DNA from: Heptranchias perlo
Taxonomy: Eukaryota
Assembly (NCBI RefSeq): GCF_035084215.1
Contig: NW_027139623.1
Coordinates: forward strand, 930,001-994,000
Reading direction: 5' to 3'
DNA: 64,000 nt
Under the pieces are notes generated by a model. That model was given only the letters and a program-made list of their open reading frames with translations, did no database searches and was not told the origin of the DNA. Below, in pieces: positions 148 to 32,279 of the stretch. Within the stretch, counting starts at the first letter, position 1. Each line of letters opens with the position of its first letter. A program made the position numbers and the translations under genes.

Positions 148-213
148 CTACCGCTTCACCATTGCGTAGGTGGTGGATTCCTCACCGAAGGTTCGGACGA
201 TGTTTCGCTGACC
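148..213 (-). CDS. Last coding exon, GQRNIVRTFGEESTTYAMVKR*, containing ITSM TTYAMV
   Basis: Acceptor cctttcatttcag, phase 0 matching the preceding exon; TAG at 150-148; TxYxxV motif. Confidence 0.85.
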   Translation of the reverse strand, partial: GQRNIVRTFGEESTTYAMVKR

Positions 214-419
214 CTGAAATGAAAGGTGCAGTTGGTCAGAAGTTCAATTGTTCGGCTTAAAATCTGTTAACAGTTCAGAGAAATTATATCAGCAGATGGA
301 TGTCGACAAAAGGCGGCAAAATAATACAAGCGGCGTTGTTCGAGTGGGCGGTCATTAAGCTGAAATGTTGAGCCACTCTAAAGGATTTTGACTGTCTGCT
401 AACGGTCATATCGAGTCTA

Positions 420-1100
420 CAGCTCAGAAACAGGCCTTTGGGCCCAACAGTTCTATGAAGGCGTTTATGCTGCACACCAGCCTCCTCCCTCTCTACTTCA
501 TCTAATCCCATCAGGATATCCTTCTAGTCCTTTCTCCCTCGTGTGCCCATCTAGCTTCCCTTTAAATCCATCTATGCTATTTGCCTCAACTATTCCTGTG
601 GTAGCATGTTCCACATTTCACCATGTACAAAGAAGTTTCTCCTGAATTACCTATTGGATTCATTAGTGACTATCGTATATTTATGACATCTAGTATTGGG
701 CTCCCTCACAAGTGAAAACATTATCTCTATGGCTACCTCATCATCATCTTAAAGGCCTCTATCTGGTCACCCCTCAGCCTTTTCTTTGCTGGAGAAAAGC
801 GCCCCAGTCTGTTCAGCCTTTCTTGATGAGTTGACCCACTCAGCTCTGGTATCAGCCTTGTGAATCTTTCTTGCACCTACTGTAATGAATCTATATCCTT
901 TTTATAATAAATGTAAGGAGTCGCACAACACCAGGTTATAGTCCAGGTTATAGAACAGAACTCGGCTCAATACTCCAAGTGTGGTACAACCAAGGCTCTT
1001 TACAGATTTGACTTCATTTCTTTTTAATTCTATCCCTCCAGTAATGAACCCCAGTGTTTGGTTTGCCTTTTTGTGGCCTTATTCACCGGCGTCGCTACTT
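420..1100 (-). mobile_element. CR1-type LINE 3' fragment, with a small Penelope-type fragment at about 912-953
   Basis: Degenerate CR1 3' end resembling other copies in the window; gtaaggagtcgcacaacaccaggttatagtcc resembles the PLE terminus at 1800. Confidence 0.7.
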
Positions 1101-1761
1101 TCTTTATTTTCAGATGAAGTTATCATTTCAACGTAATGCTGTTTGTGTAAAAACATGGAGGTCCCGCGATTACCAGCAGAGAAACAGGAAATCTGGAAAC
1201 ACATAGCGGGAGGACGTTTCTAAATTAGAGGGGATCGACTTCGATGGAAATGGAAATTGGGAGAAGTTTACAACGGGCGACCGAACCCAGATCGCCCGTT
1301 TTACGCCCGCTCCAAGTCGAAAGTTCCAATGCCTATTTCTGACAGCATCGGGAAATAGAAGGGACAACTTATCATTCCAGGTGTGATTCAAAGATGGCGG
1401 GTGTAACTCATGGAACCCGCACGCTGGATCAGTGAGGTCAATAGAAAATTGTCTTGTTTACATAGCAATGCTCTGCATATTCCACACATAAACCAAAAGC
1501 TAACCCTTCACGGCTATATACAGTCTACAGTCAGGTGCACAGAAGTATGTTTACACGTATGCAGATGCAATCTTGGGAACTAAACTCTGCTTTTGCCCTT
1601 CATTTCCTATAGGGGGAGCAAAGCTGCATCTCACCCCTCAAAGATTCGTGTTCCAATGAGGATCCTTTTCAACAAATCTTTTCAAAAAGATCCATTTCTG
1701 TAGTCCTTTTACGACATATTGAAATATGATTGCAAATGTATTTGGTCTCATGAATATTAAA

Positions 1762-1976
1762 TGATGTGGAGATGCCGGTGATGGACTGGGGTTGACAATT
1801 GTAAACAATTTTACAACACCAAGTTATAGTCCAGCAATTTTATTTTAAATTCACAAGCTTTCGGAGGCTTCCTCCTTCGTCACATCGTTCACCTGACGAA
1901 GGAGGAAGCCTCCGAAAGCTTGTGAATTTAAAATAAAATTTCTGGACTATAACTTGGTGTTGTAAAATTGTTTACA
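1762..1976. mobile_element. Short Penelope-like insertion with inverted (hairpin) arms and 12-bp target-site duplication
   Basis: Arms of about 80 bp are reverse complements; atgaatattaaa at 1750-1761 and 1977-1988; near-identical copies at 27.7, 48.2 and 56.7 kb. Confidence 0.8.
1888..1926 (+). ncRNA. Minimal type-I hammerhead ribozyme
   Basis: TTCAC-CTGACGA-A-GGAGG aag CCTCC-GAAA-GC-TT-GTGAA: intact core, stem I, stem II, palindromic stem III. Confidence 0.75.
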
Positions 1977-2143
1977 ATGAATATTAAAGGTTGAGACAAG
2001 GCGACTGTGATTTTAAACAAAGAACAAAGATCCTGAGAGAAAACGGTCAAATATTTGGAATCAACTTAGTAAGAGCATGAATGAGCGAGATAAATGATAA
2101 CATCAAAGTTAAGAAATAAACCCTAAGTTTATTTGTAACTTAC

Positions 2144-2184
2144 GCAGACTTTCCTCGGCTTCGTTTGTAGATTAAGGTCAGCGT
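2144..2184 (-). CDS. Cytoplasmic exon (Y)ADLNLQTKPRKVC, completes ITIM LTYADL
   Basis: tttcatttag acceptor, GTAAGT donor; 41 bp, phase 1 to 0. Confidence 0.85.
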
Positions 2185-3563
2185 CTAAATGAAACAAAAC
2201 AAAAAAAAGATTGCATTGATGTGTAAATATTTAAAACATTTATTAAAAATGTTTCTTTCTATGGTTAGTCTCTCCAAATGAAATGTTATTAAATCATCAT
2301 ATGAATGGGACCATCTCCACTGCCAAGAGTGGGGAGTACCAACGGTTCTCCGGCTGGCCACTGGGAAGCGAATGGACTTCCTATGCTGGTTTCCGTTACC
2401 ATTTCCTGTCTTTCGCCAGGAAATGAATGCGATTCCCAAGGTTTTTCTGGGAACAGGAAATCGATTTGCACTATGTGGCTTGTTATTTTTAGGACTATTG
2501 CAACTACAGTGTTAGTGTGGCAAGTCTTGAGTTGCCCTATGGTCGCAATGATAGATGAACTTATCACTTTCCACTTGTGACGATTAATGCGGTTACATCC
2601 ATGCTTTATAGTTTTATGAATTTGGATAAGGAAGGAATTGAAGCTGAAAGGAAGAGTGTTACTCATTGAGCCAGGACTGAGACCTCATAATAAATAGTAA
2701 TAAAAAGTGAAGTATTATATAAATGAAAGGACAAATGGGGATTGAATTACATCTACACAGCCTCGTCCAGTAATCCCCAACCCTCCAGCCGTACTTCACC
2801 TGCAGACTATACTTTGCCTTGAGTCCGAGTGCCCATTGCCTGTGAGTTCAATTCGCAATAGAATAAAAATCTTAATGCCTGCACCACTTCCTGTTTACCA
2901 AAACGTACTTCCGGTTGTTATTTTTTGTCACACTTTTGCGTCACCTTTTCCATTATAAATTCCGATGGTGCATTCATTTTTACAATAAAAAGCTGCCTCT
3001 GTAAATTTGCCATCCTGTATTTACACTCGCCCACCAGCGGCGACAATGTCGCACCTCGATTTTGCATCTCCCACCTTCGCAGCCTGTTTGCAAAACCGTC
3101 TGATACTTTAACCAACTCTAATTGCTTAAGAAATTGTCAAATATTTTACTACTTTACTGTAAATCTACAACAATTTTAAACCATGTATGTGCACACTTCC
3201 TATTATATACAAATAAGCGCATAACTTCGGATTTTAAAAGTGGGATTGAATTATGCCTGTGCGCCGGACTCCAATGATCTCGTTCCCGCGATTCCCCTTG
3301 AACTGTAGGACACACTCGATCTCCACTCCACGGTGGAAACATAAAATCAATGTTTATATTGCTTCTTGGTCAGGTTAACAAAATGGTTCAGAAATGATTG
3401 ACTCTGTATGTGATTCTTAGCAGATTTGCTAAATATAGTACAAACTGTTGTCTACAAACTGCTACTGCTAATAACTTCTTGTTCATTTTTGTTCGTTAAA
3501 AGAAAAAGAAAATACTGAACGTCAAAGACAATACCGGATGCACCAATACAAAATAGAACTTAC

Positions 3564-3607
3564 ATGTCAGGGTTTCGTTAGTCTCGTCACTAGGAGGCGC
3601 CGTGGTC
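3564..3607 (-). CDS. Cytoplasmic exon (R)TTAPPSDETNETLT
   Basis: ttcttttaag acceptor, GTAAGT donor; 44 bp, phase 2 to 1. Confidence 0.85.
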
Positions 3608-4149
3608 CTTAAAAGAATAGAAATCGTCGATTCAATCATTTTATTTTGCAAGGCACATTTCATGTGATTCGTAGACAGGTAGTGAATGGATCTAGAGATG
3701 GATCCCGCCTGAGATGTAAAAATGCCCCTCGGTACATGGCCAGGAGATCCAGCTGTTGCAAAACCAAGTTTATTCCTGAGAATTGTTCTTTGTTGCCCTG
3801 AAACTACCGATTTGTTTGACGTGTAGGGCGATTAATGAGGAACCGTCTCCAGCTCTCACTATATGTAGCGACTTCATTAAATTGTTTGTGAATATTGCCT
3901 CCCGTTGGACACTCAATTTTTTCGAGCGCAGTTTCCAATTGGCTAGAATAACTAAGGAGAGACATCATCACAAATGCATTCGCGATGTCGTTACACAGAG
4001 CGAACAGAGGAATTTCTGATCTCATTGAGCGGTGGGTAATGTGGGATCCCCAGATGAGAAAGGTCATAGCTTAATAACAACGTGGCTGAAAAGACATTTA
4101 AAGAAATGAAAGGGAGATAAAATGAAAATTATTCAAGTAAATGAAACTG

Positions 4150-4340
4150 CCCGTGTTTGGGTGAGAGTGTGCGCATGTGTGTGCGTGTGATTGTGTTTGA
4201 TATATGTTTGTGTTCCTGTATATTTGTGATTGTGTTTGTGTGTCTGTGTGTGTGTGATTGTGTGTTTGTGTTTGAGTTTGTGTGTATGAATGTGTGATTG
4301 TGTGTTTGAGTGAGAGTGTAAGTGTGAGTGTGAGTGGGGG
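4150..4340. repeat. Imperfect (TG)n microsatellite
   Basis: Direct reading. Confidence 0.9.
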
Positions 4341-4456
4341 AGCTCGATTCTAAAATTTAAAAGCCAGGACACGGACAATTGTACCGAATGTTTGCTGCTG
4401 GGTTTTATTTCGGTTGAGTGTGGTTGAAATTTAAAATTCAACACTTAATGTCTCAC

Positions 4457-4484
4457 CTCATTTCTCTGCTGTTTCCACATTTCC
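4457..4484 (-). CDS. Cytoplasmic micro-exon (G)KCGNSREM
   Basis: ttttattttcag acceptor, GTGAGA donor; 28 bp, phase 1 to 2. Confidence 0.8.
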
Positions 4485-4739
4485 CTGAAAATAAAACATA
4501 AGTGTTAGAAATCCGGATCCAATTACAAAATAGAAAGATGAGAAAGGTCAAGAAACAGAACAGGTCTTTGGGCCACTGAAACTTATTCTCCAGAACCATC
4601 TCCCTCCCGGCACCACATCCAACTCGATTATGAACAAACCCGTAGAGTATAATTTTAACCTAAACCGCCGAGTGGATAACGGGCGGGTTCGGACAGGACT
4701 TCCATTTTACACGCCGCGCGATTATACCCTCCATTGACA

Positions 4740-5720
4740 GGCCAGAGGTACATCAAGGCTTTGAGGAGCTGAAGAAGATGGCTTCGGTGTTTACGCATGT
4801 TAATCTGGACAACGTGTTGGCTGCAAATGTCTCAATGTTTGTTAATCAGTTTGGAGCGAATGGTAACAGCTGTGGTGGCTATGAAGGAGGCTGAGAGATA
4901 GAGATAGAGTAAGGGTACCGAGGAGAGTTGACCGCATACTGCTCAACGATGTAGTTAAGCTGTAGGGTATGGATGATGAAGATGAGTGGGTCAAAGGAGA
5001 TAATCCTGGGCACAGCAGACGTGATTGTGCAGCCAAGGGAGGCGATGTCAATGGATGAAATGTTATGACTATGATGTGACAGGTAGGAGTGGAAATAAAC
5101 GGGGCAGTTCCAGGGAGGCGGTGTATGGAGGACAGACACTTGAGGGATGACCGATGTTTCAAAGGTCGATTAAGAAGAGGAATGATAACAAGCCATCCAA
5201 GCAGTCACACAGGAAGTAACTGGTACTATGGATGGATGGAAGGTTGATGAGAAAGCCTTGAACAGGAAGTGGTGGGAGAAATCGGAGCATACTTGTAACG
5301 GAATCACACCTTTCAATACTTTATAGAGAAAGCGACCTTTGGATATGGGGAGCTGGAGAGGATGAGAGGATTAAGAGATGGCTTTCTTAGGAATTGCGTG
5401 ATGACAGCCGTTCTGCAGGATATAATGACTGAAGCAAAAAGGGAGCGACCGGATCAGCGCATTGGTACTCAGACAACTGAGGTGCGGAATGTTTGTGGCG
5501 AGTAGCTCAGAAGGGAAAGTGTCATGTGAGCATTTCGTGGGTTTTATGGACGAGATGAGTTTAATGTTGATGGGTAAGGAGATAAAAAAGGAAATATCGA
5601 ATCAGGTTGGAGAGGTTTACACAAGGGTGAGTGGGAAGGGTTAGGAAGTAGAGTGGTCAGAAGAGGCCCAGGCAGAAGAGGATTGTTTTTGATTTGGATC
5701 ACAAGGTATTTACAGATGAG
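4740..5720 (-). mobile_element. Old L2-like LINE reverse-transcriptase fragment
   Basis: Degenerate translation AVPRIISFDPLIFIIHT resembles the RT motif GVPQGSILGPLLF; many stops. Confidence 0.5.
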
Positions 5721-6094
5721 GAAGGGCAGTTATTGCATCTTAATTCACCGCACCCCCCGCAGAAAGACGCTACAGACACCACCCCCGTTGCTGCATCTCA
5801 ATATTCTGTCAATGATTCCAAGTTATTCGCCTCCAGAACTGTATCTGGGAGTCCATTCCTTGCATGATCACTGCGTGATGAAGAAATTCGTTATCTCCGA
5901 TTTAGATGATCTTTTACCAGTTTGTAACTGCCTCGCTTTGACCAAACCTATAACTTCATTTCATGTCATGTTTCAGATTTATCCCTTCCATAACATTTAC
6001 TATCTTAAGAAACTCCATAGAATCACCTCTCAGGTGTCTCCTTCCAGACTGAGAACCCCGAGTTTTTGTCGTCATTCTTCATAATGTGACACTA

Positions 6095-6281
6095 TGGGGT
6101 CGAAATTGGTCTTTGGGCAGTAACGCAAATCGGGCGGTATGACATAGTGTGCCAGTTATACGCTCCACCTGACGTTCAGTTCAATTCACATTAATAGGGC
6201 TGAATATCGGGTGCGGTGTAGAACAGGCGGCAAACGCGATACCGCCTGTTTTGCGCCAACGCTCGACATGGATTTCAGCCC
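6095..6281. mobile_element. Palindromic MITE-like element
   Basis: Ends ggggtcgaaatt / gatttcagccc with imperfect internal inverted symmetry; related copies near 1230, 4660, 7530, 11280, 14620 and 15840. Confidence 0.55.
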
Positions 6282-6458
6282 AGGTCTCTTTCAGCTTCGC
6301 CACCAGCGATTTCACCTTTCAATCTGTGATCTCCTTATATTTACTGTCCGAGGTTAGGGGTCAGGTGGTGGTTCGTTTGTAGTGGGGAAGAAAGGAGACG
6401 ACATTTAGCTTGGTCCATGTGTTGGCAATGAACGGATATTACATGCTGTTTAACTCAC

Positions 6459-6548
6459 CTTTCTTCCAGAAACACACACCCAACAGAGCAAGGATAAGAA
6501 TCAGAATCACAGCAGAGCCAACACCAGCCTCCAGCGCAACGGATTTAT
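6459..6548 (-). CDS. Transmembrane exon DKSVALEAGVGSAVILILILALLGVCFWKK
   Basis: ctcatttag acceptor, GTGAGT donor, 90 bp, phase 1-1; hydrophobic run then KK; no mid-membrane Lys/Arg. Confidence 0.9.
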
Positions 6549-7335
6549 CTAAATGAGATAAAGGGGCACAGTGGAATCAAGTTAACCAACATTATCTACA
6601 CGGAATAAATAATCTGCTGCTTGACAGAAGAACAAAACAGGCACTGGGACTGTGTCGATGGAATGGGCCGCATAACAGAAAAATAATGCATTAAAATGTT
6701 GACATAGAATCTTACAGCGCAGAAGGAGGCCATTCTGCCCATTGTGACTGTGCTGGCTCTTTGAAAGAGCTGTCCAATTAATCCCACTCTCCTGCTCTGT
6801 CCCAAGCTTTGCACTGTTTTGATAACGTCCCTCAGTCTCTGATACTCTAAGTCTGTCTCCCCTCCTCTCTTTTCCACTTATAAATCTCCCCCATTGATTC
6901 AATGCTTCAAAGTCAGTGGATCAGTCATGACGCCGTGAGTGGTTTTGGACCGTGATGACAACAAGATGCACCTGTTAAAACTGACGCGGCACAGAGCTCA
7001 ATTGTCATTGGTCGATTAATTAATTGCCTCGTTAATTCATTGATTCGTTCATTGGATATTAACCGTGGATCTTGGACCAGGTGACTATTTAATTACTCAC
7101 AGCTGGTGGCAAAAATATGATAGCGACAGTGTGGGAATGAATCAGTTTCATTCTGTCAGTTTCATTCTGAATGATCACTGGGTCAAAATTGCACATTGGC
7201 AGAGTGAACAGATGTGGTGACGGTTCAGGTGGGGACCTTGATCAGAACTCACCCGCTCTCTCCACAGAAGCTCACTGACGGGCTGTATGTTTACAGCATC
7301 TGTTTTGTGCTTTTTGCTTACTAGTTTCAAATTAC

Positions 7336-7407
7336 CTTGTGTTAAAGATGGTAGAGTGGGTGTTATTTTTTCTCAGATCCTCTGGGCTATTAGGGATCGG
7401 AGAGCAA
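7336..7407 (-). pseudogene. Stalk exon with in-frame TGA: VALRSLIAQRI*EKITPTLPSLTQ
   Basis: gtcctttag acceptor, AG|GTAATT donor, 72 bp phase 1-1 between last Ig and TM exons; P/T/S-rich end. Confidence 0.6.
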
Positions 7408-7529
7408 CTAAAGGACACAACTAGTGAATCAAATTTTTCAACAGAGTTGGAGAAATAAAACCGTTCGACGTTTGGTGCTTTAACTTTCCTCAGTAACAGG
7501 ATAAATAGCGAACAGTTCGTGAAATAAAC

Positions 7530-7697: not shown

Positions 7698-7793
7698 GAT
7701 GTCATTTCCACGCTAGTTTTGATCGTTAATTACAACACGGAATGCCTTGTACTGCGGTCGGATGAACACATTCACCGTGTGAATCTCACTCAC

Positions 7794-8087
7794 CTCTTAC
7801 AGTTATATATACAGGGTCACTCTCAGCCGACGTTAGCAGCCTTCCCCACACATCCCCTTTATACAGACAGGTGTAATTTCCTCCATCGGTGTGATCTATA
7901 TTCGTGATGGTGAAAGTGACAGAATTGTCCCGTGCAGCAGTCTGGACATCCGAGTAATTCGCTTCTCGGTGTCTGTATAAGTAAAATGTGAAGCCAGGAT
8001 GGTCCCGGGGGTTTGTACAATTAAAGGTAACTTTTCCACCCTTCAAAACAAGACTAGAATCCACTGATATATTTGGTTTGGGTAGAT
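7794..8087 (-). CDS. Ig domain 6 (membrane-proximal, C2-type)
   Basis: 294 bp phase 1-1; DLPKPNIS..VTFNC..FYLY..DGGNYTC..SDPVYITV. Confidence 0.9.
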
Positions 8088-11275: not shown

Positions 11276-11633
11276 GAACCCTCCCCTTTCCGCCGGGCGT
11301 GTTCGTTTAAAGTTATTCTCCAACTATCACCCTGGGTTGTGAGGTAAAGTTTTAGTCGGGATTGATATCATAAATTTCTGACAGTGGAATATAAATCCGT
11401 CTGAGGCGGAGGCCTGAAACGGGCGATCGAGCACATTTTATACTCCACAGATTTTAAACACCACCCAATTATCATTTCCATTGAAGTCAATGTAAAGAAA
11501 AACCGGAAGAGATGAGAAACGCTCTGCCGATTCACTATCGTCCGTTCTACGATAACGCATTGTCATAATCTACCCCTAATGCTGTTGAATAGATATTTCA
11601 ACAATCTCTGCTCCTCCCGCCCCTTTCACTCAC

Positions 11634-11927
11634 CTGCGATAGTGAACCTCACAGCCTCGCTGAGCTGGGACCAAAACTGCCTTCTATTGACGGAGGTTCC
11701 ATATTGACAGTGGTAGCTCCCTCCTTGGTCTGTTCCGGTGACTCTGAATGTTCCAATGTTGTCCTTTGTGATGATTTGATGAGAGTTCAGAAGTCGGCGA
11801 TCTCTGTAAAAATGGAAAGTTTGATCGCGATAGTCTCCGGCCACGGTGCAGGTAATGGTCACCGTCTCTCCTTTCAAATACACGCCACTTGGTTGATCAG
11901 GGGATATCCGTGGCTTTTTCGGCGTAT
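11634..11927 (-). CDS. Ig domain 5
   Basis: 294 bp phase 1-1; GETVTITC..FHFYRD..DQGGSYHCQY. Confidence 0.92.
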
Positions 11928-12456
11928 CTATGGTAAAATAAATGGAAAGAACAATTGGAAATGGATCTGTGGATTAAGTTACGGTGGAAGTTTGGGAACT
12001 CCATACCGATTGTGTGGTGTTGAGTGGAAATGTTTGTATCGGCGGCTGAAATTCGACAAAACGGGAATTGACCATTCATTAGTGGAATCAAACTGAGGTG
12101 CGAGAGAAAATAAATCAGTTTGTGGTTCTATTTCCAAAATCAGGGTTTAGTCCTGAAATTGCACCCTGCGATACGAGGGGAACATGGACAATGCGCTGAT
12201 TTGAAATTCCCATTCTTTGTCATTTAGGCTATGGTGCAAACCGGATATCAAAGAGTGAACTTCTCTGCTGAACCGTGGAGATTGGAACCTCAAATAAAGG
12301 AGGGAAGTGATGGTCGATTTTTTATTTATCATTCTTGGGGATGTGAATCAATGACATCACTGGATCTGAATATCGGATCGGGCTGATATCAGACGACAGG
12401 TCCGATCCCGCCCGTCTTACACAACTGCCCGTGGCGGATTTCTAATCAATTTTTAC

Positions 12457-13095
12457 TGAGACCTGTCAGGAGCAGAGCGCCGATACTTTGTGAATATTAA
12501 GCAATGTTACAAAGGCCCTGTTTGGAGCTGAACGTAGAGTTCCTCCCTCAGAATATTAAACACTGTTAGAGAGAACATTTCACGAGCTGAGCGCAGATTC
12601 CCTCTCTGACTATTATTCGCTGTTGCAGAGACCCTGTCAGGGGTTGAGCGCAGAGACCCTCACTTTGAGCATTAAACAATGTGACAGAGGCCCTGTCAGG
12701 GGTTGAGCGCAGAGGCCCTCACTTTGAGCATTAAACAATGTGACAGGGGCCCTGTCAGGGGTTGAGCGCAGAGGCCCTCACTCTGAGTATTAATCACTGT
12801 GACAGGGACCCTGTCAGGAGCTGAGCGCAGAGACCCTCTCTGTGAATATTAAACACGGTTACAGAGACCCTGTCAGGAGCTGAGTGCAGACACCTTCCCT
12901 GTGAATATTAAACACTGTCGGAGAGAACTTGTCACGAGCTGAGCGCAGAATCCCTCTCTGTGACTATTAATCACTGTTACAGAGACCCTGTCAGGGTTTG
13001 AGCGCAGAGACCCTCACATTGAGTATTGAACACTGTTACAGAGACCCTGTCAGGAGCAGAGCGCAGAGACCCTCACTTTGATATATGAACAATGT
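12457..13095. repeat. About 60-bp intronic minisatellite, roughly 10-11 copies
   Basis: Unit gagaccctgtcaggagctgagcgcagagaccctcactttgagtattaaacactgttaca. Confidence 0.9.
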
Positions 13096-13113
13096 ATATT
13101 CCCCTTCACTCAC

Positions 13114-13407
13114 CCGCTATAGTCACCGTCACAGCCTTGCTGCGCTGGGACAGTAGCCGTCTTGTTTTGACGTAAATTCCATATTGGCAGTAGTACTGCC
13201 CTTCTTGGTTTGTACTGGTAACCGGGAATGTTCCGCTGTTGTTCTCAGTGGTGATTTGACCAGAGTTCAGCAGTTCCTGCTCTCTGTAAAAGTGATATGT
13301 TTGATCGCGATTTTTTCTGCTCACGGTGCAGGTAATGGTGACCATCTCTCCTTCTACATACACACCACTCCAAAGATTAAGAGATATCCCTGGCGTTGTT
13401 AGCGGAT
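13114..13407 (-). CDS. Ig domain 4
   Basis: 294 bp phase 1-1; GEMVTITC..YHFYRE..QEGQYYCQY. Confidence 0.92.
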
Positions 13408-15111
13408 CTATGACAAAATAAATGGAAAGAACTATTAGAAATGGATCTCTGGCGTTCCCTTGTACACTGGAAGGTTGGAGACTCAATAACGATTGAGCTG
13501 TGTTGACGGGAAGGGTTTGCATCGCTGACTGGGGTTCTACAAACGTGGGATTCTGGATTTGTTTCACAAGAAACACCGAAAGACTTGCATCAATATCGCG
13601 CCTTTCACCATCCCAGGACTTCCCAAAGCGATTACCAGCCAATGAAGTACATTTGAAGTGTAGTCACTGTTGTAAAGTAGGAAATCAATTGGCAGCACCA
13701 CAGCTGGGGTTCTCTTTCCAAACTCAGGGTTTAGGCCAGAAAATGTACTTTGGGATACGAGCGGAACAAGGAAAATGCTTGATTTGAAATTCCTATTTCT
13801 GCTAATTTAGCCCAGGTGAGAACGCAGATAGAAAGAGTGAACTTCTCCATTAAACCGGGGATTCGCATTTCAGATAAAGGAGTTTTTTGGTGTGGCCGAA
13901 ATACGTTCTTATCATACAGAGGTGGCCGTCACAGGCAAGGCCGGCATTTATTCCCATCCCTTGTTGCCCTTGAGAAGGTGGTGGTGAGCCGCCTTCTTGA
14001 ACCGCTGCAGTCCGTATGGTGAAAGTTCTCTAACAGTACTGTTAGGTCGGGAGTTCCAGGATTTTAACCCAGTGACAATGAAGGAACGGTGGTTCTTGTA
14101 AAAATCAGGATGGCGTGTGACTTGGAGGGGAACGTGCAGGTGGTGTTGTTCCCATGTGCCTGCTGTCCTTGTCCTTCTAAGATGGTGGAGGTCGCGGGTT
14201 TGGGAGGTGCTGTCGATATAGGGAAAGCCACAACGTATTTAAGTTAAAGCAACCCCCAAAACAGGTTCATTTTTAAAATCTCTGCACGCAGTTGCGGGTA
14301 TCAGACTGAAAATTTGCAACGTGACAAGAGCAGCCAGTCTGGCAGAGCCTCATGAGGTGACTCTACACTCAATGGAGTTAGAACCCCGGCGCTGTGCTCT
14401 TATTATAATATTAAATTGTTCGCTCTGTTAATTGAGACCTGTAGGGTGTAAAATTGGAAATCAGGAACAGAGGTCATGTAATAATATCACACAACCTACA
14501 TTGTTTTGTTTATCGAAGGTCTTGCGTTCACATCTTCATATTTATTCTCTGGCCAACTGCTGAAATGAACGCCATCACCTCTGGAATTCTCCAGTTCCTC
14601 AGCACGGAGTTAAAAAGGACAATTTTAACACAACCGGCATTGTGGGAGTTGGATAAGTTCTGTCGACCGCCCGTTTAAAACTCTGACCGATTTTACGCTC
14701 CATTAAAGTCACTTGGGGCAAAATCGGGAAGAGTTTAAACAAGTGGCAGACTCGAAACCGCCTCTTTTCCGCCGGGCGTGTTCAGTTAAAATTATTCTCG
14801 AACTATCGCCTTGGGCTGTGAGATGAAGATTTAGTCGGGATTGATATCATAATTTCTGACAGTGGAATATAATTCCGTCTGAGGCGTAGGCCTGAAACGG
14901 GCGATCGAGCACATTTTATACTCCACAGATTTTAAACACCACCCAATCATCATTTCCATTGAAGTCAATGTAAAGAAAAACCGGAAAAGATGAGAAACGC
15001 TCTGCCGATTCACTATCGTCCATTCTACGATAACGCATTGTCATAATCTACCCCTAATGCTGTTGAATAGATATTTAAATAATCTCTGCCCCTCCCGCCC
15101 CTTTCGCTCAC

Positions 15112-15405
15112 CTGCTATAGTGACCGTCACATCCTCGCTGTGCTGGGACCATAACTGCCTTCTATTGACGGAGGTTCCATATTGACAGTGGTAGCTCCCT
15201 CCTTGGTCTGTTCTGCTGACCGTGAATGTTCCAATGTTGTCCTTTGTGATGATTTGATGAGAGTACAGCGTTTGGCGATCTCTGTAAAAATGGAAGGTTT
15301 TATCGCGATAGTCTCCGGCCACGGTGCAGGTAATGGTAACCGTATCTCCTTTCAAATACACGCCACTTGGTTGATCAAGAGATATCGCTGGCGCTGTTAG
15401 CGGAT
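15112..15405 (-). CDS. Ig domain 3
   Basis: 294 bp phase 1-1; close paralog of Ig5. Confidence 0.92.
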
Positions 15406-16157
15406 CTGTGGTAAAATAAATGTAAAGAACAATTAGAAATAGACCAGTGGACTAAGCGTACGGTGGAAGTTTGGGAACTCCATACCGATTGTGCGGTATT
15501 GAGGGGAAATGTTTGTATCGCCGGCTGAGATTCGACAAAACGGGAATTGACCATTCATTAGTGGAATCAAACTGAGGTGCGAGAGAAAAGAAATCAGTTT
15601 GTGGTTCTATTTCCAAAATCAGGTTTTAGTCCTGAAGTTGCACCCTGCGATACGAGGGGAACATGGACAATGCGCTGATTTGAAATTCCCATTCTTTGTC
15701 ATTTAGGCTATGGTGCAAACCGGATATCAAAGAGTGAACTTCTCTGCTGAACCGTGGAGATTGGAACCTCAAATAAAGGAGAGAAGTGATGGTCGATTTT
15801 TTATTTATCATTCTTGGGGATGTGAATCAATGACATCACTGGATCTGAATATCGGATCGGGCTGATAACAGGCGGCCGATCCGATCCCGCCCGTCTTACA
15901 CAACTGCCAGTGGCGGATTTCTACTCCATTTTTACTGAAGAACGGGCGGTCGAGCATCTGCAGCTCATTTTATACTCCACCCGTTTTATACACCACCCAA
16001 TTATCATCTACTTTGAAGTCAATGGAAATAAAAATCAGGAGATATGTGAAACAGCCTGCCGATTCACTATCATCCATTCTACGCGAGCGCACAGTCAAAA
16101 TCTACCTCTAATGGTGTTGAATAAACATTTTCCTAATCTCTGCACCCCTTCACTCAC

Positions 16158-16451
16158 CTGCTATAGTGACCGTCACAGCCTCGCTGATCTGGGACCATAA
16201 ATACCTTCTATTGACAGTGGTTCCATATTTACATTGGTACCGCCCTCCTTGGTCTGCTCTGCTGACCTTGAATGTTGCAATGTTGTCCTTTGCGAGGACT
16301 TGATCAGAGTACAGCGGTGAGCTACCTCTGTAAAAATGGAAGGTTTTATCGCGATAGTATCCGGTCACGATGCAGGTAATGGTAACCGTCTCTCCTTTCA
16401 AATACACCCCAGTCGGTTTATCAGGGGATATCCTTGGCGTTGTTATCGGAT
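16158..16451 (-). CDS. Ig domain 2
   Basis: 294 bp phase 1-1; GETVTITC..DQGGRYQCKY. Confidence 0.92.
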
Positions 16452-16904
16452 CTGTGGCAAAATGAATGGAAAGAACAATTAGAAATGGATCTGTGGATTA
16501 TGTGTACGGTGGAAGTTTGGTAACTCAATAACGATTGCGCTGTATTTTCGGGAACAGTTGGAATCGATGGCTGAAGTTCCTCAAAACGGGAATTAACCAT
16601 TCATTAGTGGAATCAAACTGAGTTGCGAGAGAAAAGAAATAAGTTTGTGGTTCTATTTCCAAAATCAGATTTTAGCCCTGAAATTGCACTCTGCGATACG
16701 AGGGGCACATGGAAATGCGTGGATTTGAAATTCCAATTTCTGGTCATTTAGCCTGTGGTGCAAACCGGATTAAAAAGAGTGAACTTCTCTGTTAAACCGT
16801 GGAGATTAGAATCTCAAATAAAGGAGGTAAGTGATGGTGGGCTCGATTTCATCATTATCATTCTTGGGGATGAGAATCAATGACCTCACTGGGAGTGAAT
16901 ATTG

Positions 16905-18290: not shown

Positions 18291-19063
18291 CGAATCTTGT
18301 CCAATATTTTTATAAGTCTTCCCATTGGCTCTTGGTTACAGTATTCTCCAGCTACAGTTAACTGTGAGTCACGATTCATTCCTAGACGTTTGTGTTTAAA
18401 ACAATTAAAACTCTGCAAACAATTATCCAACTTTTAATATTCAGTTGTGGCGATGTTATTGGAATGAAACTTGTCCAATGACAGTGCAATATGCGGCCGG
18501 GCATTTTCACCAAATTAGCTGCTCTGTTTTCTGTTTAGTTTCTGTGAAGTGCGGCGTCTATTTACCTGTTCACAACGAATCATTGAATCTTATAGCACAG
18601 AAGGAGGCCATTCGGTCCATCGTGCCAGTGCAGACTCTTTGAAAGAGATACGCAATTAGATCAACTCCCACCGCTCTTTACCAATTACCTCTGCATTTTT
18701 TTCCTTTTAAAGTATATATACAATTTATTTTGAATGTTATTACTGAACCTGCTTCCACCATCCTTTCAAGCGGTGCATTCCAGATGACAACTCGCTGCGT
18801 AAAAATAATTTCCTCATCTCCTACCTGGCTCTTTTGCCAATTACCTTAAACTGTGACCTTTGTTTGCCGAACCTTCTGTCAGTGGGAACAGTTTCTCCCT
18901 ATCTACTCTATCAAAACCCATCATCATTTTGCAAATCTCTATTGAATCTCCCCTTATTCATGTCTGCTCTAAGGAGTACAATCATATCTTATCTAATATC
19001 GCCACATAACTGAAACATTTGCCTCGTTGTAAAGTTGCAAAAACCCTGCCCTGTCTCACTCAC

Positions 19064-19347
19064 CTGTTACTATTACTGGCGCCGAGTCACTGAACGAGGA
19101 CCATTTCCATTCCCCGTTAATCCGATAACTATACCGGCACTGGTAATCTCCTTGATCATTTCTGTTGGTGTTGCAATTTGATACACTGTGCTGCTAGTGG
19201 AAAATTGCAGTTCGTTCCCATCTTTGTAAAAGGCATAATTGCCACTCCGGTATTTTTTGTCGTCAAGGCAGTTAATCGTGATGGTTTCTCCGGGTAAGTA
19301 CACGCCAGTCTCTTCATTCATGATAATTTCAGGTTTCACCAGAAGTT
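19064..19347 (-). pseudogene. Ig domain 1 exon with a 1-bp frameshift
   Basis: 284 bp, not a multiple of 3. ELLVKPEI..GETITINC..FYKDG is in one frame and NDQGDYQCRY..SDSAPVIVT in another; the shift lies near 19160-19165. Confidence 0.85.
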
Positions 19348-24495: not shown

Positions 24496-24528
24496 CTTGA
24501 GAAATGCTCCGCCGAGCCCCAAAGACAA
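24496..24528 (-). CDS. 33-bp second leader mini-exon (I)VFGARRSISQ
   Basis: ttttctccttttag acceptor, AG|GTTAGT donor, phase 1-1; split leaders are typical of LRC/FcR-type genes. Confidence 0.8.
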
Positions 24529-25329
24529 CTAAAAGGAGAAAACATTAATTAGTTAAATTAACACCAACACCTTTAGACGATCAACATAACAAGCTGATTT
24601 TCGTGAATTGTTTTATGGATATTTCTCAGTGTGATTGCATTGGTGGCATTTTGGTCCGTTTCGGTTAAACTCCCACTCCAGAACTTGAGAGATTTCCAGA
24701 TTTCCACTACCCTTTGTTTGAAAAAGTACTTCCTGCTTTCACTCCAAATGGTCCAGCTCTAATTTTAATACCATGCCTACTTGTTCTCGATTCCCCTCGA
24801 TAACTGAATAAAATCAATCGAGACGTCCCTTTGTAAAACATTCCAATTACCCACGGCAAGTATTAAAAGCTGCCCTTGGGCCTAATGACACAAAACCGCA
24901 TGAAAACTTGTTCAAAAAACACGAAGGGCCCATTTTGTGGCTGAGTGAAACCGTCAGTAAAAGACAAGGGAAAGCAACTGGTGTGGAGTGTGTGTGCAGA
25001 CACTGTGTATCTTTACAGATCTTCACATGCGTCCACATCACGAAACAGAATTGCAATGAAAGCGTCGGAGCTCCAATATGGAATAGATGGATGCATTAAC
25101 GGTGGGAATTGAGATTTTAAAAATTGCAGATTATGGGGTTAATGCTGAGCATAACGGACAGCTGCAGCACTGTGTTTGTTGAAGGGCGTTAGTCTCCAGC
25201 CACTGTGCAGGTCTATTTCTCAGTGATGTGGTGAACTCGAGCATACTGAGGGAGGAAGTTAAGTCTAAATAATGAGATGCGGAAGTTGTATGAATTTACT
25301 GGAAACCGATACTTTTACAAACAATTTAC

Positions 25330-25368
25330 TCACTGTCACAAATTGCACAATCCGGGTGTCCTCGGCAT
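25330..25368 (-). pseudogene. Leader exon copy A: ATG out of frame (MPRTPGLCNL*)
   Basis: Homologous to 32219-32279 with the same A|GTAAA donor; the hydrophobic frame IVQFVTV has no ATG. Confidence 0.6.
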
Positions 25369-25709
25369 GGAAGGAGGAGGAAAATCGAATGCCAATAAGT
25401 AAAGCAGCAAAAAATATTTCAGGCTGAAGTTAATTGCGACAGGAAATGTTCACAATGGACACCTGAGGTTTCAGCTCAGAAGCGCTTCACCTCAGACAAA
25501 CAGGAAGTTAAACACTGACAGTAAGAGCAGAGCATCAGAACCAAGGATGTGTTTAAACACATTGAATGAAAATACATTGAGGCAATCTTTGTAATACGTT
25601 TCAAACAGAATAATTAATTTTCGAATGCCACCACAATTACAATCATAAAATTATACAACCTTGCAACGCAGAAGGAGGCCATTCAGCCCATTGTGCCTGT
25701 GCCAGCTCC

Positions 25710-26960
25710 TTAACATAGAAACATAGCAAAAAGGAGCAAGGGTAGGCCATTCGGCCCTTCGGGCCTGCTCCACCCTTCAAAATGATCATGGTTGATCATC
25801 TAACTCAGTACCCTGTTCCCGCTTTTTCCCCATATCCATTGATCCCTTTAGCATTAAGAAATATATCTATCTCCTTCTTGAATACATCTAATGACTTGGC
25901 CTCCACTGCCTTCTGTGGTGGAGAATTCCAAAAATTCCCCACCCTCTGAATGAAGAATTTTCTCCTCATCTCGGTTCTAAATGGCATATCCCGTATCCTG
26001 AGACTGTAACCCCTGGTTCTGGACTCCCCAGCTATCGGGAACATCCTCCTTGCATCTAGTATGTTTAGTCCTGTTAGAATTTTATATGTTTCGATGAGAT
26101 CACCTCTCATTCTTCTAAACTCTAGTGAATATAGGCCTAGTCGACCCAATCTCTCCTCATACGTCAGTCCTGCCATCCCAGGAATCAGTCTGATAAACCT
26201 TCGTTGCACTCCCTCGATGGCAAGGACATCCTTCCTCAGATAAGGAGACCAAAACTGCACACAATACTCCAAATGTAGTCTCACCAAGGTCCTATATAAC
26301 ATCCCTGATCCTGTACTCAAATCCTCTTGCAATGAAGGCCAACATACCATTCGCCTTCCTAACTGCTTGCTGCACCTGAATGCTCACTTTCAGCGACTGA
26401 TGTACAAGGACAACCAGGTCTCATTGCACCTCACCTTTTCCCAATCTATCACCATTCAGACAATAATCTGCCTTTCTGTTTTTACAACCAAAGCGGATAA
26501 ATTCACATTTATCCACGTTATACTGCATCTGCTATGTTCTTGCCTACTCATTCAACTTGTCTCGAACACATTGGAACCTCTTTGCATCCTCCTCACAGCT
26601 CATATTCCGCCCAGCTTTGTGTCATCTGCAAACTTGGAAATGTTACATTGAGTTCTCTCATCCAGTTCATTGATATATATTGTGAATAGCTGGGGCCCAA
26701 GCACTGATCCCTGCGGTACCACACTGGTCACTGCCTGCCACCCGGAAAATGACCCGGTTATTCCTACTTTCTGTTTCCTGTCTGTCAACCAATTCTCAAT
26801 CCATGCCAGTATATTCCCCCCAATCCCATGTGCTTTAATTTTGCACACTAACCTCTTTGGTGGGACCTTATCAAAAGCCTTCTGAAAATCCAAATACAAC
26901 ACATCCACTGGTTCTCCCCTATCTATTCTACTAGTTACAGCCTCAACAACCTTTAAAGTG
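25710..26960 (-). mobile_element. Relatively well-preserved CR1 LINE ORF2 3' part
   Basis: LDFQKAFDKV, PQGSVLGP, KFADD, RRMRGDLIETYK motifs. Confidence 0.92.
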
Positions 26961-27429
26961 CTATCCAATTAGTCCCAGCCGCCTGCACTTTGTCCATAGT
27001 CCTGCATGTTTTTTTCCCCGTTAAAGTATTTACCCAATTCCATTTTGAAAGTTACAAATAGAGTTGCAGTAACAGACTGATTCTCGGGCATTCATTTATT
27101 AATAAAATTGAATTCAATTCTGTTAAAATACATGCAGAGATGGAATCCCACCTTGTGTCTCCTGTATTTGATATAAGGCGACTTATATACAAACTGATTG
27201 GGAGAAATAGGAGGATATAATCAGCATCTTAATCGTGTATTATGCTGCAAATTTAACTGGGCCTTGAAACCAAACTAATTTATTTCTGAATCCAAATTAT
27301 TAAAGTTATTAAATGACGTTGAAACCACAAGATCTAATTGACATTTTCACGAGAAAGAAATCTATTTGTTCCAGTTTCCACCATTCATTTATCTAAAATG
27401 TCAAGTCACCTTGTAGCTCGGTTGGAAAT

Positions 27430-28260
27430 GTAGTCAACTTGAAATTGTAGTAAGCAGTGAGGAGGATAGTGGCAGACTTCAGACAGACTGGTAATAAAAT
27501 GGGCAGAAACATGGCAGATGACATTTAATACAGAGAAGTGTGAAGAGATGCATTTTGGGAGGAAGAATGCAACGAGGCAATATTAACCATATGGTGCAAT
27601 TTTAAAGGTTTTGCAGAAACAGAGAGACCTGGGGGTGTATGTACACAAATCATGAAAGGTGGCAGTACAAGTTAATAGATCTGTTCAAAAAAATTATAGG
27701 ATCGATGGCTTCAAAAATAGACATTTACCTGACGAAGGAGGAAGCCTCCGAAAGCTTGTAGATTTCAAATAAAAATTGTTGGACTATAACTTGGTGTTGT
27801 AAAATTGTTTACAATTGTCAACCCCAGTCCATCACCGGCATCTCCACATCATTTAAAAATAGAGGCAGAGAGAAAAGAAGCAAAGAGGTTATGCTAAACA
27901 TTTATAAATCATTGGTTTGACCGCAGCTGAAGTGCTGCGTCCAATTCTGGGCACTACATTGTTGGAAGGCGGTCAAGACCTTACAGAGGGAGCAGTGGAA
28001 ATTTATTGGAATGATACCAAGGATAGGGAACGTCAATTAATTGGAGAGACTAGAGACTCTGGAATTGTTCTCCTTAGAGCAGAGAAAGTTAAACGGTGAT
28101 TTAATAGAGGTGTTCAAAATCATGAAGGGTTTTGATAGAGTAAATAAGGGGAATATATTTGCACTGGCAGAAGAGTCGGTAGCCAAAAGGTACTGATTGA
28201 AATGAATTGGCAAAAGAACCAGAGGCGAGATGAGGAGAATTTGTTTTTGCAGTGAGGTCT
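27430..28260 (+). mobile_element. CR1 LINE 3' fragment interrupted by a PLE insertion
   Basis: Degenerate CR1 ORF2 C-terminal sequence on both sides of 27722-27854. Confidence 0.75.
27722..27854 (+). mobile_element. Penelope-like insertion with hammerhead at 27724-27762; 9-bp TSD aaaaataga
   Basis: TTTAC-CTGACGA-A-GGAGGaagCCTCC-GAAA-GCTT-GTAGA; TSD at 27713-27721 and 27855-27863. Confidence 0.8.
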
Positions 28261-28759
28261 ATCGAGATGTCTGTTTGCAAATAATCCCAATAATCCATAG
28301 TCAGTATCAAAATGTGCCTTTGTGCCTATTGACACAAAACAGCGTGAAAAGTTCTTCAAAATGTACAAAAGCCCCGTTTTGGGACTGAATGAAACCGTCA
28401 CTGAAAGATAAAGGAAAGCAGCTGGGTTGGGTGTGTGTCCAAACATTGTGCATTTTTACAGATTCCCACATCTCAACACCACAGAAATGCAATAGAAGTG
28501 TCGGAGCTCTATTATGGGATGGATGGATGGATGCATTAACGGTGGGAATTGATATGGAAACATTGGAGATTAAAAGCTTCATGCTGATCCCAACGGGCAA
28601 CTGCAGCACTGAGTTTATTGAAGGACATTAGTCTCCACCCACTCTACAGATCTATATCTCAGTGATATGGTCATACTGAAAGAGGAAGTGGAGTCTAAAT
28701 AATGAGAAACGAATGGTGTTTGAATTCACTGTAAACTGGTACTTTTACAGACACTTTAC

Positions 28760-28792
28760 TGACTGTCACGAATATCACAAAATGAGTGTCAT
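28760..28792 (-). pseudogene. Leader exon copy B, frameshifted (MTLIL*)
   Basis: Homologous module with A|GTAAAG donor; its promoter is split by a CR1 insertion. Confidence 0.5.
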
Positions 28793-28844
28793 CGCTTTGG
28801 AGGGCAAGATCCAAGATGAATAAGTAATGAATTTTAAAATATTA

Positions 28845-29625
28845 TGCAATACATTTTGGTCAGAGGAGTAAGGAGGCCACGTATTCCTTGGAAAATAAGA
28901 ATCAAAATGGGGTATAGGAGCGAAGGAATCCTGGGGTACAGATTTACAAATCATTAACAATAGCAAAGAAAGTTAACAAGACCATAAAAAGCAAACACAG
29001 CACTGGGGTTCATTTCTATAACAATAGAATTGAAAAGCAGAGACATTATTTTAAACTTATACAGAACCTTAGTTGGACCACGCTTAGATAACTGTGCTGA
29101 GTTCTGGTCGCCACATTTAAAAAAAGACGGATGCAGAGGCACTGGAGAAGGTGCAAAAAAGATTCACAAGAATGAAACCAGAACTGAGTGGTTACGCCCA
29201 TCAGGAAAGATTGAACATGCTGGGGATCTTTTCTCTAGAAAAGAGAAGGCTGAGGGGTGACATGATAGAGGTTTTGAAAATTATAAAGTGGTTCGATAGG
29301 GTAATCGTAGAGAAGACATTCCCACTTGTGAGACAGTTCAAATCCAGGAGCCTAAATATAGAATAGTCACAATAAATCCAACAGGAGAAACTTCTTTACC
29401 CAGAGAGTGGTGAGAATGTGAAACTTGATGCATCATGGAGTAATTGGGGCGAATAGTATAGATGCCTTTAAGGGCAAATTATATAGGTACATGAGAGATA
29501 AAGGTGTTGGAGGATATGCTGATAGGGTTAGATGATATAGGGGGCGAGACTCGCGTCGAACATAAACACCGGCACAGACCAATTACGCCGAATGGCCTGT
29601 TTCCATGCTGTAAATTCGATATAAC
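28845..29625 (+). mobile_element. CR1 LINE 3' fragment
   Basis: LYRTLVGPRL..FWSP and FSLEKRRLRGDMIE motifs. Confidence 0.85.
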
Positions 29626-30229
29626 ATCAGACTGAAGTTAGCAGTGAGAGCAAATACATCAAACCGAAAACTGTGGTTAAACATTTTGAATGTAAATTCA
29701 CTGTCAATCTTTCTGATATGCTTTCAACCGAAAGTTAATTAACACCAATATTAAAGGTGTAGTAACAGAATTATTCATGGGCATTGATTTATTAATAAAA
29801 TTCAATTCTAGTCACTTAAAATACATAGACATATTTAATATTGCAACTAACATCTCCTAAGCTATGAATAAGGAGATGTATTTAGGGACAGCATTCGATC
29901 AGAATAGGAGAAAGCAGAGGAAACAAACAGTCTCACGGCAAGAGGAGGACAATGCCTCAGGAAACTGACCATTCACAATTTCAGCTGGTTTGGGGCCCGG
30001 AATCGAAGTTGGACAGTCAGCTCTTTATTCCGAATAAGGTCAAGGGATCAGGAGGTGGGTCTAATGGGCAAGCTCAGCTCGGAAAGTACATGCGTGGAGA
30101 TCGGAGGGAAACTAGAAAAAGGCTCAGGATCAGGGCTGGGTGATTGGAGAGCCTTAGGAGTGGTTGGGCTTGGTGATATTGGGAATTGTGGGATGCAGCA
30201 GAGGCACCTGAATGGATGGTCTTAATCTT

Positions 30230-31960
30230 AGTGACTTCGGTTATGTGGAGAAACTGGAAAAACTGGGATTGTTCTCCTGAGAGCAGAGAAGGTTAAGTGG
30301 AGATTTAATAGGTGTGTACAAAATTATGAAGGGTTTTGATCGAGTATGAAGGGAGAAACTGGTTCCACTGGCAGGAGGGTCGAGAATCAGAGGATACAGA
30401 TTAAAGTTAATTGGCAAAAGAACCAGAAGGAGATGAGGATAAATTTTGTTCCGCCAAAAATTGTTCTGATCTGGAATGGTGGTGAAGCAGATTCAATAGT
30501 AACTTTCAAAAGCGAATTGGATAGAAACTTGAAAAGGGAAAAAATGCAGAGCGATGGTGAAAGAACAGGAGAATGGGATTAATTTGACAGCTCATTTAAA
30601 TGCTGTCACATTCATGACGAGCCGAAAGGCCTTCCTCTGTGCTGTAAGACTTCATGAAGTTCACTAGGTCCTCGTATTTGTTGTTGGAGGAGAGTGTGGA
30701 GGGGGCTGGGAAAGAGATTTATGGAGATTGTGTGTTGTGGGCAAAAGAAGCTGGAGGTTATCTTTGGTCCCCAGGGTCATTCTGGAGCAGCAGGCGGTTT
30801 TCAGAGAGGACATAGTGCTTGTTCTAATTCTGGGTCAGCCATATCTGGTGATGGATGGCTAAACCAGTGGTGATCCAGATATGCTCAAGTCTGCACCCCT
30901 TGGAATTAAACCAGCAGGAACGATCAGGATAGAAGAGAGTAAACGTTTTACTCGGGGCAAAGGCATCAACGGTTGAAGAACGGGAGTGGTTGAGAAGTTC
31001 CACAGCCGCAGAAGTATGATGACAAATGGCGGGTCAAAGTCTAGGCAACAGAGAGTGTGAAAGTGTTTATTCCAAAGTTGGAACGCAGAAGTAATTTGAT
31101 TTGAAGTAAGTAAGGAGATGTAGATTATGATGGTTGCAAGGAAGTGACCGAGGCCTTGGCAGTGTACAACTCTGGGCACCACACTTTAGGAAGGATGTCA
31201 AGGTCTTGGAGAGGGTAAAGAGGACATTTACCCGGATGATACCAGGGATGAGGGACTTCAGTAATGTGGAGAGATTGGAGAAGCTGGGGTTGTTCTCCTT
31301 AGAGCAGGTAAATGTAAAGGCAGACCTAATAGAGGTATTCAAAATAATGAGGGGCTTTGATAGATCAAGTAGAGTGAAATTGTTTCCGCTGGCAAGTGGT
31401 CTGTAACCAGAGGTCACAGATTTCAAATAGTTGGCAAAAGAACTAGAGGGAAATGAGGAGAAATGTTTACATAAAGAGGTTTGCGAAGATCTGGAACACA
31501 CTACCTGAAAGGGTGATGGAAGCAGATTCCATCGGAACTTTCAAAGGGCAATTGAACATGTACTTGAAGGGGACTAATTTGCAGGGTTATGAAGAAAATA
31601 ATTCGGGTGTGTTACTAATTTGGATTGCTCGTTCAAGGAGCCAGCATAGACTCGACGGCCGAAAGGCCTCCTCCCAAGTTGTAAGATTCTATGATTCTAT
31701 GTTTCTTGTCAACTTGAAATTTTAGTAAGCAATGAGAAGGTTGTTGGCAGAGCTCAGGAGGACATTGGTAGATTGGTGAAAAGGGGAAACACGTGGCAGA
31801 TGACATTTAATGTAGAGAAGTGTAAAGTGATGTATTTTGGAAAGAAGAGTGAGAAGAGGCAATATAACCTAAATGATCAAATTGCACAGCGGGAGCATTA
31901 ACAGAGAGACCTGCGGATTCACATTCACAAATCTTTGAAGGTGGTAGTTGGAGATTAAAC
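30230..31960 (+). mobile_element. Cluster of CR1 3' fragments (about 30230-30660, 31150-31700, 31710-31960)
   Basis: QLWAPHFRKDV and LGLFSLE motifs; attctatg tail at 31686-31701. Confidence 0.75.
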
Positions 31961-32218
31961 GGTAAATGCCGACCCTCCTGCCAGTGGAAACAGTCTCTCC
32001 CCAACTACTCGATTGAAACCTTTCATTATATTTTTCTGAGCAACGGTCAGCAGTAGCACTGTGTTTGTTGAAGGACATTAGTCTCCACCCACTGTGCAGA
32101 TCTATATCTCTGTGATGTGGTCAATTGCAGCATACTGAAGGAGGAGGTGGAGTCTAAATAATGAGAACAGAATGGTGTTTGAACTCACTGGGAACCGATA
32201 CTTTTACAAACAGTTTAC

Positions 32219-32279
32219 TCATTGTTACAAATGTCACAATTCGGGTGAACGGTATGGAAGGAGGAAGTAAATTGAACAT
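32219..32279 (-). CDS. Leader exon copy C, best candidate first coding exon: MFNLLPPSIPFTRIVTFVTM
   Basis: In-frame ATG, 61 bp, phase-1 GTAAAC donor; joined to the mini-exon it gives a hydrophobic core IVTFVTMIVFGA. Confidence 0.55.

Follow-up and report, generated by a model that had tools for sequence, protein, structure and literature searches.

The stretch analysed here, 64,000 nucleotides of the Heptranchias perlo genome (contig NW_027139623.1, positions 930,001 to 994,000; hereafter the window), carries a 13-exon gene on the minus strand from 34590 to 148, as defined by splice-site and frame analysis. The gene probably encodes a type I receptor with six C2-type immunoglobulin (Ig) domains, D1 to D6, an uncharged transmembrane (TM) segment and a two-tyrosine tail, and would serve on the inhibitory side of a family of paired receptors in sharks and rays. 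Judged from its sequence, that family holds many near-identical copies, this gene among them, alongside sister receptors with an arginine in the TM segment (Arg-TM sisters).

To delineate the gene, exons were chained by splice sites and reading frame (Table 1). The exons of D2 to D6 are 294 bp apiece, with AG/GT ends and phase 1-1, and the domains they encode score above the Pfam Ig cut-offs; the first half of D1 gave a weak Ig_3 match. Downstream lie five micro-exons of 90, 28, 44, 41 and 66 bp, all with AG acceptors and the first four with GT donors. The phases of the TM exon and the four tail exons chain into a single open frame that stops at 148, so that the in-phase splicing of the five micro-exons claimed in an earlier reading of this DNA (the original prediction) was borne out. 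No poly(A) signal was seen over the 147 bases downstream of the stop codon. With its C2-only ectodomain and type I topology, the predicted receptor has the form by which members of the leukocyte receptor complex (LRC) are defined (PMC6557307; papers are cited by PMC number). The cassettes of D5 (11401-12459) and D3 (14879-15938), exon plus intron, are 94% identical, with that of D2 (15941-16902) at 83–84%, a likeness that by sequence comparison reads as the record of recent tandem exon duplication.

Table 1. Exons of the receptor gene, in order of transcription (window coordinates)
Exon	Position	Strand	Remarks
Leader exon 1	34533..34590	-	58 bp from first ATG, 31 bp from second; phase 1; GTGAGT donor
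Leader mini-exon 2	24496..24528	-	33 bp; AG/GT, phase 1-1; matches P0005 residues 17-31
Ig D1	19064..19347	-	284 bp; a base is missing near 19170 in assembly
Ig D2	16158..16451	-	C2 type, repeated type; Pfam Ig_2/Ig_3; AG/GT
Ig D3	15112..15405	-	Exon-plus-flank cassette 94% identical to D5 cassette
Ig D4	13114..13407	-	Ig domain; RNA-like contigs end at its edges
Ig D5	11634..11927	-	Ig domain
Ig D6, membrane-proximal	7794..8087	-	LRC-leaning; four N-glycosylation sequons
TM exon	6459..6548	-	90 bp; hydrophobic core without charged residue; helix in model of P0007
Cytoplasmic exon 1	4457..4484	-	28 bp; fits depth arithmetic
Cytoplasmic exon 2	3564..3607	-	44 bp; last base is first base of ITIM Tyr codon
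Cytoplasmic exon 3	2144..2184	-	41 bp; finishes ITIM LTYADL
Last coding exon	148..213	-	66 bp; ITSM TTYAMV and stop; RNA-like contigs end at 212/213

The tail comprises 61 residues with tyrosines at 27, in LTYADL, an ITIM (immunoreceptor tyrosine-based inhibitory motif), and at 56, in TTYAMV, an ITSM (immunoreceptor tyrosine-based switch motif). Their spacing of 29 residues and the interruption of the ITIM tyrosine codon by an intron (T/AC) are as originally predicted. The two motifs fit the consensus forms (S/I/V/L)xYxx(I/V/L) and TxYxx(V/I) taken from PMC12151841, and together with the uncharged TM segment they form the sequence pattern of the proposed functional class. When tails were shuffled, an ITIM ahead of an ITSM appeared in 33 of 200,000. 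In three database models (H. perlo, white shark) the sequence stops or drifts directly behind the identical L-T pair, a pattern that points to a shared intron position in the ITIM codon. The tail is not hidden, as had been claimed: an NCBI model of H. perlo (P0007) has the same D6, TM segment and tail, letter for letter.

At the other end of the gene, the split leader with a mini-exon proved half right. The 33-bp mini-exon is present, and the first leader exon had been misplaced. The start proposed at 32279 was rejected on account of its weak GTAAAC donor and its position within a repeat unit, copies of which (78–85%) lie at 25145-25639, 28591-28843, 32690-32953 and 33131-33244. Paralogs point instead to 34590-34533, where 17 of 19 residues match paralog P0004. 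Intron 1 holds several copies of a non-coding unit (25145-33244, 77–88%). Within what is here the D2–D3 intron, 15957-15901 encodes the first 19 residues of the NCBI models P0002 and P0007; on sequence grounds, the start of these models inside that intron is likely an artefact.

Contigs from sequencing runs were compared with the exon chain. Three runs guessed to be RNA behave as RNA. Their depth is zero in the intron bin 14301-14950, against 61 in a DNA run, and their contigs end at exon edges (19064, 13114, 13407-13409, 7794 and 212-213) with letters left over. At the last exon, three contigs end at 212-213 and run on for another 139–140 letters; 113 of these fit the three micro-exons upstream, and the remaining ~27 would fall in the TM exon. 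Tail-contig depth multiplied by exon length gave the observed bin depth in four of six run-by-bin cases for the 28- and 44-bp exons.

Relatives were sought with D6 and with a profile. The D6 search found ten longer proteins, eight of them from H. perlo (79–100%), and in the profile search the top ranks were taken by 45 proteins of cartilaginous fish together with one from a frog. Of the 45, 17 combine an ITIM with a terminal (T/S)xYxxV at a distance of 28–31 residues, 15 of them with the strict ITSM (Thr). The two-motif proteins occur in Heptranchias, Cetorhinus, Carcharodon, Mustelus, Scyliorhinus and Pristis. In five of the 45, four of them short-tailed, an arginine lies where the TM segment starts, in the form xPIRL (S/I/T-P-I-R-L); the asparagine of the NxxR motif of activating LRC members was found in none of the five. 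With ITIM-bearing forms beside short-tailed forms that have a charged TM residue, the family shows the paired pattern of the LRC. The white shark model P0012, which enters both the two-motif and the Arg-TM sets, is fused; it seems to join an Arg-TM gene to a neighbouring inhibitory gene, implying that the two kinds lie side by side. Several members sit on one small scaffold per species, and rays, skate, horn shark and one Callorhinchus protein are among the 30 named of 150 profile matches. The paralogs of H. perlo differ in domain number and order, as do LRC receptors (PMC6557307) and the Xenopus FcR-like family (PMC2413239). Two database models depart in the tail region, P0002 having the tail with the TM exon absent and P0006 having lost the distal tyrosine. 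Related Ig domains also occur fused to SRCR domains in P0020, P0026, P0075, P0082 and P0133 (horn shark, white shark, H. perlo, grouper and Callorhinchus); the protein of the last combines an SRCR part with four Ig domains and three tail tyrosine motifs.

By analogy, the gene likely works as a brake of the LILRB or PD-1 type. In leukocytes, where it would be expressed, ligand binding by the outer Ig domains would lead a Src-family kinase to phosphorylate both tail tyrosines, and the two phosphotyrosines could then offer two-site binding to a tandem-SH2 phosphatase, SHP-1 or SHP-2, with SHP-1 perhaps slightly favoured by the alanine at pY+1. The recruited phosphatase would dampen signals of activating receptors, likely including the Arg-TM sisters, which are predicted to pair with an adaptor bearing an immunoreceptor tyrosine-based activation motif (ITAM), as LRC activating receptors do (PMC6557307). 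FcRgamma was not found in sharks by PMC4016189.

It is very unlikely that the tail is instead a switch, its ITSM binding SAP/EAT-2-type adaptors and activating in some cells. The mechanism is that of SLAM receptors, and the strict TxYxxV of 15 of the 17 two-motif proteins would suit it. It fits poorly with the serine that replaces the ITSM threonine in close paralogs and with the single ITSM, three residues short of the C-terminus; moreover, tails with an ITIM and an ITSM are described as acting through SHP-2 in PMC12151841.

Several observations weigh against the reading of this gene as an inhibitory receptor with an ITIM and an ITSM. The threonine of the ITSM is serine in P0001 and P0004; it is not invariant, and 'tandem ITIMs' therefore fits the family as well as 'ITIM and ITSM'. 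The 45 proteins include isoforms and near-copies and are not independent genes. P0003, P0006, P0033 and P0042 are without one or both tyrosines, and other members lack a TM segment or the motifs. The original prediction was to fall if orthologs lacked the tyrosine motifs; both are kept across genera in the 17 of 45, and the relatives just named are the contrary cases. As for the contigs, no run is on record as RNA, and the three guessed runs come from one sample and one study and consist of contigs only. Bin depth was above expectation in two of the six run-by-bin cases, and none of the rows listed, among which repeats dominate, joins the tail junctions. Against the window, the tail contigs show 1, 5 and 11 differing letters and may derive from paralogs; they therefore speak for this splicing in the family rather than in this particular copy. 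Finally, all six Ig exons that had been predicted are present, but in the assembly D1 measures 284 nt and the six-Ig frame in consequence meets a stop at codon 122, a frameshift that the original prediction had overlooked. With D1 skipped, an open frame of 609 residues with five Ig domains results, and a D1 of 285 bp would give 704 residues.

The missing base of D1 was weighed on the contig pieces listed, a minority of the whole. Over the 280 bases of 18909-19188 a DNA contig (X1 record 8) has 281 letters and one other letter different, and two guessed-RNA contigs (X5 record 16 and X6 record 24) cover 19064-19302 with 240 letters on 239 and 0 and 9 other differences, respectively. Since both kinds of contig carry the extra base, an intact form of D1 exists in the sample. 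We lean towards a slip of the assembly. It is possible, though rather unlikely, that the family is real and this copy a recent pseudogene or null allele, with the intact contigs derived from the other haplotype or from a paralog nearly identical to it. The early stop would be as expected, as would the position of the break outside any homopolymer and the existence of paralogs 92–100% identical per domain (P0001, P0002, P0004, P0007, P0008); a D1-like domain is, besides, in none of the stored H. perlo models (best listed BLAST matches ~37–42%). That account has to face the extra base in X1 record 8 and X5 record 16, which otherwise differ from the window by one letter and by none, the intact state of all remaining exons and splice sites, and the frame kept when D1 is skipped.

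We asked whether the receptor belongs to the LRC or to the FCRL family. For calibration, a sturgeon protein, the only calibrated FCRL, scored 242 bits to FCRL5 and 74 to PIRB, and a lizard NxxR protein 154 to LILRB1 and 97 to FCRL5. A carp protein (P0048) whose top ranks were CEA and LILR, and a turtle protein named A1BG-like (P0071; FCRL5 87, PIRB 56 bits), were excluded as FCRL and LRC references, respectively. The long shark profile scored 134.5 bits to FCRL5 versus 86.5 to PIRB, and the two-domain profile 86.7 versus 92.3; by these sequence scores the shark profiles stand between true FCRL and true LRC references. True membership of the LRC, in the lineage of LILR, CHIR and LAIR and from the same ancestral cluster, has somewhat less than an even chance, and D6 speaks for it. 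The closest structures to D6 (model of P0007) were CHIR-AB1 (Z 14.1, root-mean-square deviation (rmsd) 1.6, 92 aligned), LILRB4 D1 (13.8) and LAIR1 (13.8), above FCRLA (12.2). As a single domain, D6 scored 28.8 bits to LAIR1 and ≤11 to any FCRL5 domain, and its alignment scores were 92–119 to four LRC proteins versus 60 to the calibrated FCRL. In a 78-domain tree (a subset of 183 domains; unrooted, 98 columns, no mixture model, and without LILR, KIR, CHIR or tetrapod FCRL), the LRC (98/89), FCRL/LITR (96/92) and D6-type (98/92) domains each formed one side of a branch. The D6 type was sister to the LRC at 55/88, in 158 of 300 bootstrap trees, and never with FCRL (0/300). Primate IGSF1 and NxxR reptile proteins were also within the best 150 matches of the profile search. 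Against LRC membership, the support is 55/88, and the approximately unbiased test rejected neither D6 with FCRL (p 0.149) nor all shark domains together (p 0.191). D1–D5 fall outside the LRC group, their nearest relatives being frog and turtle proteins without names; the Arg-TM sisters are without the asparagine of NxxR (0/5); and the whole-protein profile ranks FCRL5 over PIRB. A single-domain model of D5 matched CHIR-AB1 (Z 12.3), CEACAM6 (12.2), CEACAM1 (12.1) and FcgammaRI (10.9), and because the first three tie, D5 is taken as a generic C2 fold.

Membership of the FCRL/LITR family, which many database names imply (Fc receptor-like protein 5), is unlikely. FCRL5 does lead the summed-score PDB searches, FcR chains are among the top Foldseek rows, and D2–D5 scored 82–101 to the sturgeon FCRL versus 58–77 to mammalian LRC proteins. 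The FCRL5 lead, however, is a sum of many weak domains (≤11 bits each for D6), and a real fish FCRL separates FCRL5 from PIRB far more widely (242 versus 74) than does the two-domain shark profile. Neither the ray-finned FCRL/LITR group (96/92) nor the LRC group contains any shark domain. The second leader exon, 33 rather than 21 bp, also disagrees with FCRL; it is near, not equal, to the 36 bp of the LRC rule, for which no paper turned up in the literature searched. The 30/21-bp leader exons of FcR type, obeyed by only a fraction of Xenopus genes (PMC2413239), were not found here (58 or 31, and 33 bp). Three further comparisons were set aside: for the two-domain model, the top Foldseek rows contained FcR and LILR chains side by side at rmsd 9–27; the ESM Atlas returned allergin-1, IGSF1, FcgammaRII-like and FCRL1 clusters all at 0.95–0.96; and Pfam PF17737 failed to split LRC from FCRL. 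We conclude that D6 leans to the LRC, that the other domains do not, and that the gene cannot be filed as LRC or FCRL. The original prediction of a poorly described cartilaginous-fish receptor of LRC/FcR-like type with an ITIM and an ITSM thus stands as to its shark and ray homologs, conserved tyrosines and exon-following contigs, and not as to membership of either family; the per-domain phylogeny it called for leans to the LRC through D6 and to neither family through D1–D5. Multi-Ig proteins of frog and turtle (P0034, P0067, P0071 and P0107) have the domain type of D1–D5 and group with neither LRC nor FCRL/LITR. By sequence they are possibly a third lineage without a name, lost or reduced in mammals.

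Only histone genes were seen as neighbours of the receptor gene within the window; the genes that flank the LRC include TTYH1, LENG8, RPS9 and TSEN34 (PMC6557307). The cluster adjoins it at 49225-55164, with H2B and H2A on the plus strand and H3, H4 and H1 on the minus strand. Matches at 49711, 51125 and 51685 resemble the histone stem-loop pattern. Near-identical translations of open reading frames (ORFs) at ~36400-37900 and 56900-58600 suggest a local duplication, and 62500-63900 is a G-rich tandem repeat with repetitive ORFs on both strands. A tRNA search found none.

As to setting, a 2014 account (PMC4016189) found in sharks neither FCRL nor LRC homologs of the C2-only kind, a 2019 paper (PMC6557307) regards the date at which the LRC arose as unclear and automatic names as misleading, and a 2026 paper (PMC13337447) says that cartilaginous fish lack Fc receptors and FCRLs and poses antibody-driven phagocytosis as a question. 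No description of this shark and ray family was found in the literature searched, which covered few subscription papers. To some extent, LRC-like genes may already have been described in cartilaginous fish: a 2021 paper in Immunogenetics reportedly gives the elephant shark one LRC-like and two FCRL genes. The tail mechanism is ordinary and the genes are already present as automatic database models; what appears undescribed is the expanded paired family with xPIRL TM segments and mosaic domains. Expanded and clustered, and with a relative in a chimaera, this shark and ray family has ITIM and Arg-TM forms and an LRC-leaning domain, in a lineage described as being without such receptors. Its members offer named candidates with which to place paired receptors in time and to test binding of IgM, IgW, IgNAR, MHC class I or collagen. 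It is a long shot that the family is the shark stem of the LRC and that the missing Fc receptors of sharks include some of its members, in the way that CHIR-AB1 serves chicken IgY; ancestry on the LRC side alone comes close to an even chance. If the family were that stem, a large paired C2-Ig receptor system would be older than the split of cartilaginous and bony fish.

Among known sequences, the nearest are NCBI models of H. perlo itself: besides P0007, P0001 and P0002 match D3–D6 at 94–98%. The models P0001–P0008 carry inconsistent names (FCRL5, KIR3DL1, LILRA3, OSCAR, IGSF1-like), and none has D1. The Ig domain of HIDE1 (C19orf38; Pfam PF17737) is matched above the cut-off by D3–D6 and at the cut-off by D2, and also by related frog, turtle and chimaera proteins; it is not diagnostic, since a lizard LRC protein and the sturgeon FCRL match it and primate IGSF1 does not. 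With FCRL, Xenopus XFL and teleost LITR the receptor shares long C2 arrays, a two-exon leader, multi-exon tails with tyrosine motifs and paired forms. It differs from them in its second leader exon (33 versus 21 bp), in domains lying outside the FCRL/LITR group, and in a match to FCRL5 weaker than a true fish FCRL gives. CD33-type Siglecs have a tail with an ITIM followed by an ITSM, as does PD-1, and like PD-1 the shark receptor is predicted to engage tandem-SH2 phosphatases. The PD-1 ectodomain is unrelated, the likeness being one of working only, and the shark motifs depart from the PD-1 consensus in PMC12151841. The receptors of the LRC (LILRB/PIRB, LAIR1, chicken CHIR and the IGSF1/A1BG group) differ in having NxxR where the shark sisters have xPIRL and in a domain group to which neither D1–D5 nor any other shark domain belongs; D6 shares 24–31% identity with the three solved LRC domains that match it best. 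They resemble the shark family in the C2-only ectodomain, one exon per domain, the split leader, ITIM-bearing forms beside Arg-TM sisters, lineage-specific expansion and exon shuffling, and in the fold of D6, which is nearest to CHIR-AB1, LILRB4 D1 and LAIR1.

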